IMG/VR virus record: IMGVR_UViG_3300045988_177154
Location: 64,001-128,000 of that record
DNA: 64,000 nucleotides
Source: a virus
Strand: one strand, 5' to 3'
The translations under genes and the position numbers were made by a program. Position 1 is the stretch's first letter. Every line of letters starts with the position of its first letter. The notes beneath the pieces are model-generated. The model searched no databases. It saw only the letters and a program-made list of their open reading frames with translations, and was not told the DNA's origin. This document shows, piece by piece, positions 31,749 to 31,885 of the stretch.

Positions 31749-31885
31749 TATATTAAATTGGTTGTCCTTGAGATGTAGGTTCAAATCCTGTACTGGCCGC
31801 CGGGTCGGTTATTTTAATTGGTAAAAATACAAGTAGGCATTAAATGAATTGAGAACTGGCACTTCCTTTCATACAATTTAATATA
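31749..31885 (+). ncRNA. closed-stem RNA unit U-B containing a second permuted tRNA-like body (31766-31833)
   Basis: 12-bp closing stem TATATTAAATTG/CAATTTAATATA. Inside: CCTTG, T-arm TGTAGG-TTCAAAT-CCTGTA, ACTGGCC-GCCG-GGTCGGT capped acceptor-like stem, D-like arm ATTTT-AATTGGT-AAAAT, CAAG. Confidence 0.5.

Follow-up and report, generated by a model that had tools for sequence, protein, structure and literature searches.

The window analysed here, the whole 64,000-nt stretch at positions 64,001 to 128,000 of IMG/VR virus record IMGVR_UViG_3300045988_177154, belongs to an uncultured phage-like genome and carries a tRNA island at 30478-37465, whose 22 tRNA genes all lie on the + strand. Between tRNA-Phe(GAA) and tRNA-Tyr(GUA) of this island lies a closed-stem unit, U-B, which is the subject of this study (Table 1). 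The same DNA is present on a 325-kb ENA contig, and its close relatives are IMG/VR and ENA contigs of 262-335 kb; the nearest cultured phages are Staphylococcus Herelleviridae, at roughly 25% amino-acid identity for one protein. Two sigma-70-type promoter matches precede the island. These, like the other promoter and terminator calls in the window, come from simple consensus scans and are no evidence of function.

U-B is framed by a perfect 13-nt inverted repeat (31748-31760 and 31874-31886, with 113 nt between the arms), recovered by a repeat search. It bears out the initial annotation of this DNA, made from the sequence alone, in which TATATTAAATTG at 31749-31760 was said to pair perfectly with CAATTTAATATA at 31874-31885; both words are read there. 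As RNA, the arms form 14 pairs, the outermost of which is U.G, giving a closing helix, P1, whose 3′ strand (31874-31887) falls within an invariant block, TTCATACAATTTAATATAAG. The parts listed for the interior, namely CCTTG, a T-arm, a capped 7-bp stem, a D-like arm and CAAG, can each be read in that order at the positions given for them. In the consensus fold, P1 closes a predicted three-way junction, with one branch, P2, carrying a permuted tRNA ‘top half’ and a second branch formed by hairpin P3; a further hairpin, H4, comes directly after P1. The closed-stem core first described at 31749-31885 is real, but its end was set too early, because H4 belongs to the unit. By reading, the D-like arm holds the equivalents of A14, G18 and G19, and the last U of the variable-loop equivalent AGAU could form a 15-48 Levitt pair with A31817. 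The predicted fold, with its non-chargeable tRNA top half, has neither an anticodon loop nor a free CCA end, and only spurious short open reading frames (ORFs) occur inside the unit.

Table 1. Coordinates of U-B, its parts and its neighbours in the tRNA island, with the basis or remarks for each.
Feature	Position	Strand	Basis or remarks
Two sigma-70-type promoter matches	30284-30312, 30423-30451	+	Just 5′ of the island's first tRNA; 12/12 consensus positions each
U-A closed-stem unit	30925-31071	+	Between tRNA-Asn and tRNA-Lys; fold z-score -5.8
Module 5, YrlA-like permuted tRNA-like unit	31540-31654	+	About 100 nt upstream of U-B
tRNA-Phe(GAA)	31663-31734	+	Upstream neighbour of U-B; CCA not encoded
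P1 closing helix, AU-rich, 13-14 bp	31747-31760 / 31874-31887	+	Complementarity and RNAalifold consensus
P2 5′ strand, UGUC-CUUG	31763-31770	+	Pairs with 31830-31839; ‘anticodon-stem-like’ helix linking the tRNA-like head to the scaffold
Variable-loop equivalent AGAU	31771-31774	+	Invariant in 9 variants; assigned by reading against tRNA numbering
T-arm GUAGG / UUCAAAU / CCUGU	31775-31791	+	Canonical UUCRANY T-loop; recognised in the re-ordered ARAGORN test
Acceptor-like stem, 7 bp, ACTGGCC-GCCG-GGTCGGT	31792-31809	+	Tetraloop GCCG at 31799-31802
U8-A9 equivalent (TA) and D-like arm TTTT-AATTGGTA-AAAA	31810-31827	+	As RNA, UUUU / AAUUGGUA / AAAA
P2 3′ strand, CAAG + UA bulge + GGCA	31830-31839	+	RNAalifold consensus and pair counts; CAAG is 31830-31833
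P3 hairpin AUGAA..GAA[CUGGCAC]UUC..UUCAU	31844-31872	+	RNAalifold consensus; 7-nt loop at 31856-31862
H4 hairpin, 9-10 bp	31888-31912	+	Loop CCGCCAA at 31897-31903; directly abuts P1
H5 hairpin (UAGUCUUG...CAAGACUA)	31916-31959	+	Upstream of tRNA-Tyr; lineage-specific
tRNA-Tyr(GUA)	31970-32054	+	Downstream neighbour of U-B

Nine distinct variants of U-B were gathered from a neighbouring-protein search, a pattern scan of IMG/VR and a scan of one metagenome. They fall in about three lineages of 260-335 kb phage contigs, comprising the window and L009; L012 and L059; and L020, L026, L071, L060 and L138. RNAalifold by itself recovers P1, P2, the T-arm, the acceptor-like stem, the D-arm and P3. The proposed pairs are kept in 97.6% of cells across the nine variants, compared with 38-45% when the partners are slid by 1-3 columns, and double compensatory changes occur in four pairs: two in P2, one in the T stem (A-U to G-C) and one in P3. 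In P2, of which 98.6% of cells pair, CUUG/CAAG is replaced by CUCA/UGAG, which contributes both double changes, and U-A/U.G changes are also seen; the change in the inner helix of P3 is from A-U to G-C. Every cell pairs in the T stem, where G.U to A-U changes accompany the A-U to G-C change, and likewise in the acceptor-like stem, four pairs of which toggle between G-C and G.U. The latter stem has 7 bp in the window and L020 types and 6 bp in the L012 type. Its capping loop varies (GCCG, UCCG or GCAUU), so the variants do not all share the CCA-like GCC found in the window type. In P1, 13 of the 14 pairs are constant, the outermost U.G being lost in three variants. A covariance model built on U-B scores 174 bits on the + strand versus 22 bits on the - strand, and we place the RNA on the + strand; read from the opposite strand, its G.U pairs would turn into A.C mismatches.

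Hairpin H4 shows double compensatory changes in four pairs, with 98.8% of its cells paired. Within its loop, GCCA (31899-31902) is complementary to UGGC (31857-31860) in the loop of P3, which has the consensus YUGGYRC across variants. In the L020 type this pairing becomes ACCA/UGGU and grows to 6 bp (UUGGUG with CACCAA), which amounts to one compensatory change, at the core of the complementarity and representing a single event. A kissing contact between the two loops is thus a candidate interaction, for and against which we see the chances as roughly balanced. The D-loop of the L020-type lineage carries an 8-nt insertion (ACACCAAG), and this insertion, at L020 4798-4813 with equivalents in L026, L071, L060 and L138, creates a CACCAA that repeats the H4 loop and is likewise complementary to UUGGUG of the P3 loop; the minimum-free-energy (MFE) folds of L020-type variants use this D-loop/P3-loop pairing in place of the D-arm. 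The sequence between H4 and tRNA-Tyr is lineage-specific, the L020-type lineages carrying a different one, and H5 is probably not part of the conserved unit.

Simple scans flag 31792-31809 with TATTTTAATT as terminator-like and 31849-31877 as promoter-like (10/12). Conceivably, then, the locus might hold transcription signals laid over a decaying tRNA remnant, in which the GC-rich capped hairpin and UAUUUU would terminate transcription, TTGAGA-17-TACAAT would be a promoter for tRNA-Tyr and the genes downstream, and the remainder would be left over from a tandem tRNA duplication. The -10-like TACAAT does lie within the invariant block, and a neighbouring unit, module 5, shows that tRNA-Asn and tRNA-Thr sequences of the phage itself can give rise to permuted tRNA-like units. 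However, the -35 is not conserved (TTGAGA versus TTTGGA) and its changes are compensated in the RNA helix P3, while the region contains 12 promoter-like matches against a shuffle mean of 12.2. The U-tract is broken up, and in the L020 type it is weaker (UAGUUU); it also serves as a strand of the D stem, and a terminator here would stand before 17 more tRNA genes with no strong promoter between. A remnant would not be expected to show compensation in P2 and the T stem, nor to keep its acceptor-like stem in full, and there is neither room nor trace for the missing outer tRNA halves. We regard this explanation as very improbable.

Over 31736-31969, ARAGORN and Rfam (the latter including matches at E<=10 on a 901-nt slice) report no tRNA or transfer-messenger RNA (tmRNA), and no credible match to any other Rfam family. 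The initial annotation had allowed that an ordinary, non-permuted tRNA gene might have been mis-folded; neither ARAGORN nor Rfam RF00005 reports one there, and tRNA models detect no contiguous cloverleaf that includes an anticodon arm and leaves the acceptor ends free. Judged by these models, U-B is not a mis-folded ordinary tRNA. Its likeness to tRNA appears when the halves are re-ordered, the 5′ half (31803-31833) being followed by an artificial anticodon loop, the 3′ half (31767-31798) and a tail. In this form the window type, the L012 type and module 5 are called tRNA by ARAGORN at default settings, compared with 0 of 100 shuffled controls. By reading, the nucleotides for the tertiary contacts (U8-A14, R15-Y48, G18/G19 with U55/C56, and U54-A58) are present in the window and L012 types; in the L020-type lineages the GG is displaced by the 8-nt insertion.

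Module 5 belongs to a set of five tandem closed-stem modules at 31183-31660. Their closing stems, of 5-6 bp, covary, and in each module the 5′ strand is followed by a conserved A-N-A-CAGCAA motif and a variable insert, and the 3′ strand by UAGAUU. The insert of module 4 (31480-31496, AUGGA-CUUUUAA-UCUGU) mimics the anticodon stem-loop of tRNA-Lys(UUU), with a loop that is invariant in five lineages, and module 3 contains a variable anticodon-stem-loop-like hairpin. Module 5 itself matches the Rfam YrlA family (RF02553) over its full length at 42.1 bits (E 7e-7), below the gathering score of 69; this sub-threshold match recurs in L012 and L020, and tRNA-tRNA junctions reach about 28 bits with the same model, below module 5. 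The two halves of module 5 are close to tRNA-Asn and tRNA-Thr of the phage itself; U-B resembles none of the island's tRNAs. The initial annotation had given U-B the same permuted, anticodon-less architecture as module 5, and in agreement the U-B covariance model matches the module-5 core at about 30 bits. The two units share a permuted core of T-arm, capped stem and D-arm but differ in scaffold, that of module 5 being closed by a GC stem and bearing the CAGCAA motif common to modules 1-5.

The RNAs of the YrlA family, from bacteria and mycobacteriophages, are Y RNAs that take the form of a tRNA whose halves are permuted and whose acceptor stem is closed, and they are modified by TruB and DusA (PMC4201824; bioRxiv 10.1101/312249); the structure PDB 6CU1 is described in bioRxiv 10.1101/312249. 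YrlA RNAs have been reported in phages, Y RNAs adjoin tRNAs in some bacteria (PMC4201824; 10.1101/312249), and some jumbo phages encode TROVE proteins (PMC7824862). With these precedents, the YrlA domain order and long terminal helix of U-B (PMC4201824), the Rfam YrlA match of module 5 about 100 nt upstream and the RNA ligases encoded in the window, U-B might be a true Y RNA, in which P1/P2 would bind a phage- or host-encoded Ro60/Rsr and the head would tether an effector, such as PNPase or an RNA-repair enzyme, as in YrlA. However, the 5′ motif GNCGAAN0-1G, a proposed Ro60/Rsr contact (PMC4201824), is absent from U-B, with GNCGAA found by reading nowhere on the + strand of 31735-31969. U-B has no Rfam YrlA match even at E<=10 on the 901-nt slice, and its T- and D-stem sequences are unlike the strongly conserved ones of YrlA. 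By Pfam, the TROVE family is missing among the 66 ORFs of at least 90 amino acids in the 64-kb window, whereas YrlA genes adjoin rsr; the only Ro60-sized ORFs of the window encode TnpB and a penicillin-binding protein. On these findings U-B is not to be filed as a member of YrlA, and we consider it improbable that it is a Y RNA in this sense.

On balance, we think it probable that U-B forms the core of a non-coding RNA, some 170 nt long (31747-31912, + strand), that is both structured and conserved and would be a co-transcribed, non-chargeable tRNA mimic engaging tRNA-recognising proteins. Several observations weigh against this proposal. Its fold has a z-score of -1.45, 17 of 200 shuffles being as stable, and the tRNA-like fold lies 7-13 kcal/mol above the MFE in nearest-neighbour energy. 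Energies above the MFE are common for tRNA-like folds, since the energy model ignores tertiary contacts. With the thermodynamics weak, the case for U-B rests on comparison, where the variants stem from only about three lineages and hence represent few independent substitution events. P1 shows no covariation, and the AU-only D stem is the weakest helix, with 86% of cells pairing and likewise no covariation. The window and L012 types differ only in the T-arm and acceptor-like stem, plus one D-loop base, a difference that could be one local replacement and not stepwise compensation. The insertion in the L020 type breaks the canonical D-loop, and the re-ordered L020 type is not called tRNA by ARAGORN at default settings. 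Finally, the missing YrlA match, the missing GNCGAA and the missing TROVE gene in the window count here as well, because they leave no partner that can be named.

As far as seen within the searches made, U-B appears to be restricted to one clade of giant phages, with no homologues in cultured phages, in GTDB species genomes or in the sister clade L013-L021. Three related contigs, L062, L082 and L139 (BNJV01000220.1, BNJT01002609.1 and BNJV01000810.1), were excluded from the alignment. An apparent loss of the tRNA-like head in these three was rejected, the assemblies being error-ridden, with all tRNAs and GC-rich stretches garbled and proteins frameshifted. Their AT-rich stretches are intact while the GC-rich ones are scrambled, a pattern that resembles systematic sequencing or assembly error.

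In the mechanism that we propose for this non-chargeable mimic, the promoters at 30.3-30.45 kb would drive U-B in one transcript with the tRNAs. Two enzymes would free it, RNase Z by cutting behind the discriminator of tRNA-Phe, which lacks CCA, and RNase P by acting at tRNA-Tyr; the RNase P/Z processing suggested in the initial annotation is plausible. U-B would then fold into an L-shaped RNA, like the YrlA Y RNAs, whose head would offer tRNA-recognising proteins a tRNA elbow and an acceptor/T minihelix. We envisage a scaffold or decoy in phage-host conflict over tRNA rather than a translation adaptor, a leaning that comes from the tRNA-Lys anticodon-loop mimic of module 4, the hairpin of module 3 and the three RNA ligases encoded nearby.

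Alternatively, processing could be the sole role of the element, with the head serving as an extra RNase P/RNase Z site, P1 and P2 as an RNase III-type duplex that punctuates the transcript, and the excised RNA as a functionless product. In M. smegmatis YrlA, which has a 7-bp stem, RNase P cuts and CCA is gained (PMC4201824; bioRxiv 10.1101/312249); a 6-bp stem with a tetraloop, the Salmonella form, was found uncleaved by Chen et al. 2014 (PMC4201824). The 7-bp acceptor-like stem stacked on the 5-bp T stem in the window and L020 types resembles the RNase P-opened M. smegmatis form, having the feature that makes the latter a substrate (PMC4201824); U-B also lies between two tRNAs of one apparent operon, and P1 and P2 together make a near-continuous duplex of about 22 bp. 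Yet the flanking tRNAs already give RNase P and RNase Z sites on either side, and the L012 type, with only a 6-bp stem and a tetraloop, resembles the uncleaved Salmonella form. Processing alone also leaves the invariance of P1, J23 and V, and the conserved P3 and H4 with their matching loops, unexplained. We give this explanation little credence.

A broader version of the decoy idea, which we put forward as doubtful, is that U-B and the CAGCAA modules form a battery of tRNA-part decoys on constant closed-stem scaffolds, titrating host tRNA-targeting immune nucleases or toxins, or their sensors. Module 4 would contribute the tRNA-Lys(UUU) anticodon stem-loop, module 3 its hairpin, and module 5 and U-B the ‘top-half’ mimics, and the battery would complement the nearby RNA ligases. 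In a variant of this idea, considered together with it, RNase P would open the 7-bp capped stem and CCA addition would give a two-piece, possibly chargeable RNA. For the simpler proposal of a single non-chargeable mimic, the RNA of about 170 nt is a concrete candidate to set against tRNA-processing enzymes and tRNA-targeting defence systems. Should it turn out to be no more than a processing signal, or a variant Y RNA, it would still add to the catalogues of RNA families, having been missed by current Rfam models.

Upstream of the modules, the unit U-A possesses the 12-bp closing stem ascribed to it (30925-30936 / 31060-31071, with one G.U pair). This stem covaries among relatives, from GAGCGAUAC/GUAUCGCUC to GAGUGACAC/GUGUCACUC to GAGUGGCAC/GUGCCACUC, with three compensatory positions, and together with the five CAGCAA modules it sustains the view that the island holds several classes of closed-stem RNA. 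No tRNA-like body is found in U-A. It has two internal hairpins and an invariant unpaired AUCCUCCUUUCAU, which resembles the 3′ end of 16S rRNA (anti-Shine-Dalgarno); a second copy of the motif, UAUUCUUUCAUUG, lies downstream. The 13-mer that U-A and U-B were said to share, TCCTTTCATACAA, is exact and has only two copies in the window (30981-30993 and 31864-31876), most of it lying in the P3 loop in U-B. The further statement that it takes an equivalent 3′-proximal position in both units is wrong, since the copy in U-A sits in the middle of that unit, in a part that is unpaired, with 78 nt between it and the 3′ end. Nor is the 13-mer kept in relatives, which carry TCCTTTCAT---ACA in U-A of L012 and L020 and CTCCTTATTCATACAA in the L020-type U-B. 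Being unconserved and differently placed, it gives no evidence of common descent or of a shared site, and homology of U-A and U-B through it was rejected.

Elsewhere in the island, a GOLLD RNA is found at 36689-37142 (Rfam, 156 bits). Embedded in it is a tRNA-like gene (36756-36830), called tRNA-??? with the 4-base anticodon tgag; GOLLD and its embedded tRNA are present in L011 and L020 and absent from the relative L012. A conserved and very acidic ORF of 35 amino acids, MNELLLEELLEQLENKGIDISKLNIQEITDEDDFF, lies at 32170-32277 between two tRNA-Glu genes and is a gene call in all related contigs. Two tandem runs of like-sized ORFs flank the island, one upstream at 10410-18781 (about 320-347 amino acids each) and one directly downstream at 37715-44331 (about 163-184 amino acids). 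Almost none of their members has a Pfam match; those of the downstream run are paralogues, cross-matching the same stretches of the relative L135 in tblastn.

Pfam domains of the window include three RNA ligases, PARG/macro, NADAR, GreA, sortase and LytR, and further proteins are a PASTA-domain protein, a separate class A penicillin-binding protein and two TnpB copies. RNA-repair and ADP-ribose-processing genes are plentiful in the window (262-1278, 53173-54351, 29298-30083 and others), encoding a PHA02142/Rnl2-like ligase, a second RNA_ligase-family protein, a T4 Rnl1-like ligase, PARG and macro domains, and NADAR. GmrSD-N, SLOG/YpsA, ThiF and epsilon-antitoxin domains also occur, and the TnpB/IS605 OrfB-like genes lie at 7171-8667 (-) and 59623-60840 (+).

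Four other readings of the U-B sequence were set aside. Over 13 nt, the 3′ strand of P3 (31861-31873) perfectly complements a stretch that precedes GOLLD (36378-36390), and antisense pairing there was rejected as probably a chance match; the target is unchanged in L020 though the U-B segment has changed, and the region is missing from L012. A link to IS605/TnpB was suggested by a second occurrence of CAATTTAATATA at 60849-60860, 9 nt after the stop codon of the second tnpB, but without wider similarity it was put down to chance in AT-rich DNA. A miniature inverted-repeat transposable element (MITE) or transposon with terminal inverted repeats was rejected because the unit is single-copy, at the same site in every readable lineage, and lacks a target duplication. 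Lastly, AAGGAGG-like words could mark the start of a minus-strand gene; they have no suitably spaced start codon, and only spurious ORFs are found.

Among known systems, the T4 tRNA cluster contains small stable RNAs, ‘species 1 and 2’ (rnaC, rnaD), that are processed with the tRNAs, and U-B is likened to these by description only. The permuted tRNA genes of algae such as Cyanidioschyzon merolae contain a complete anticodon arm and yield a chargeable tRNA through a circular intermediate made by the splicing endonuclease. Bacteria are not known to have this pathway. Like these genes, U-B places a 3′ half (T-arm and acceptor 3′ strand) 5′ of a 5′ half (acceptor 5′ strand and D-arm); unlike in the algal type, its D-arm is not followed by an anticodon stem-loop, P2 instead exiting to the scaffold, with P3 about 10 nt past the end of P2. 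Such circularly permuted algal genes are mentioned in PMC3400036 and PMC4090602. The tmRNAs, including the two-piece permuted forms (RF00023, RF04321), resemble U-B in setting a tRNA-like top half within a larger RNA and in replacing the anticodon stem with a helix. However, the acceptor ends of tmRNA are free and can be aminoacylated, and it contains a reading frame for a tag, whereas U-B has a capped stem and no ORF, and neither ARAGORN nor Rfam calls a tmRNA in the window.

The closest parallel remains YrlA. The architecture predicted for U-B is the published circularly permuted, closed-acceptor YrlA design, an already known arrangement that the initial annotation had not recognised. In both, a helix formed by the RNA ends leads through V, the T-arm, a closed acceptor-like stem-loop and the D-arm back to the helix, and both have the T-loop, with the anticodon loop and free CCA absent; equivalents of G18/G19, U8/A14 and 15-48 can be read in the window and L012 types of U-B. 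Both are coded among tRNA genes and have phage examples. U-B departs from YrlA in its all-AU invariant closing helix, in the placing of P3 at a three-way junction, and in the attached H4 with its possible loop-loop contact. By analogy, we infer that U-B may act in the manner of the YrlA-type tRNA mimics, built on another scaffold and without a recognisable Ro-protein partner in the window. Permuted closed-acceptor tRNA mimics have so far been known as Ro60-linked Y RNAs, and a conserved example from giant phages with neither the Ro60 motif nor a nearby Ro60 gene would change this picture. Lying beside anticodon-loop mimics, GOLLD and RNA-repair genes, U-B suggests that tRNA mimicry may be a broader phage tool than the Y RNA paradigm implies.

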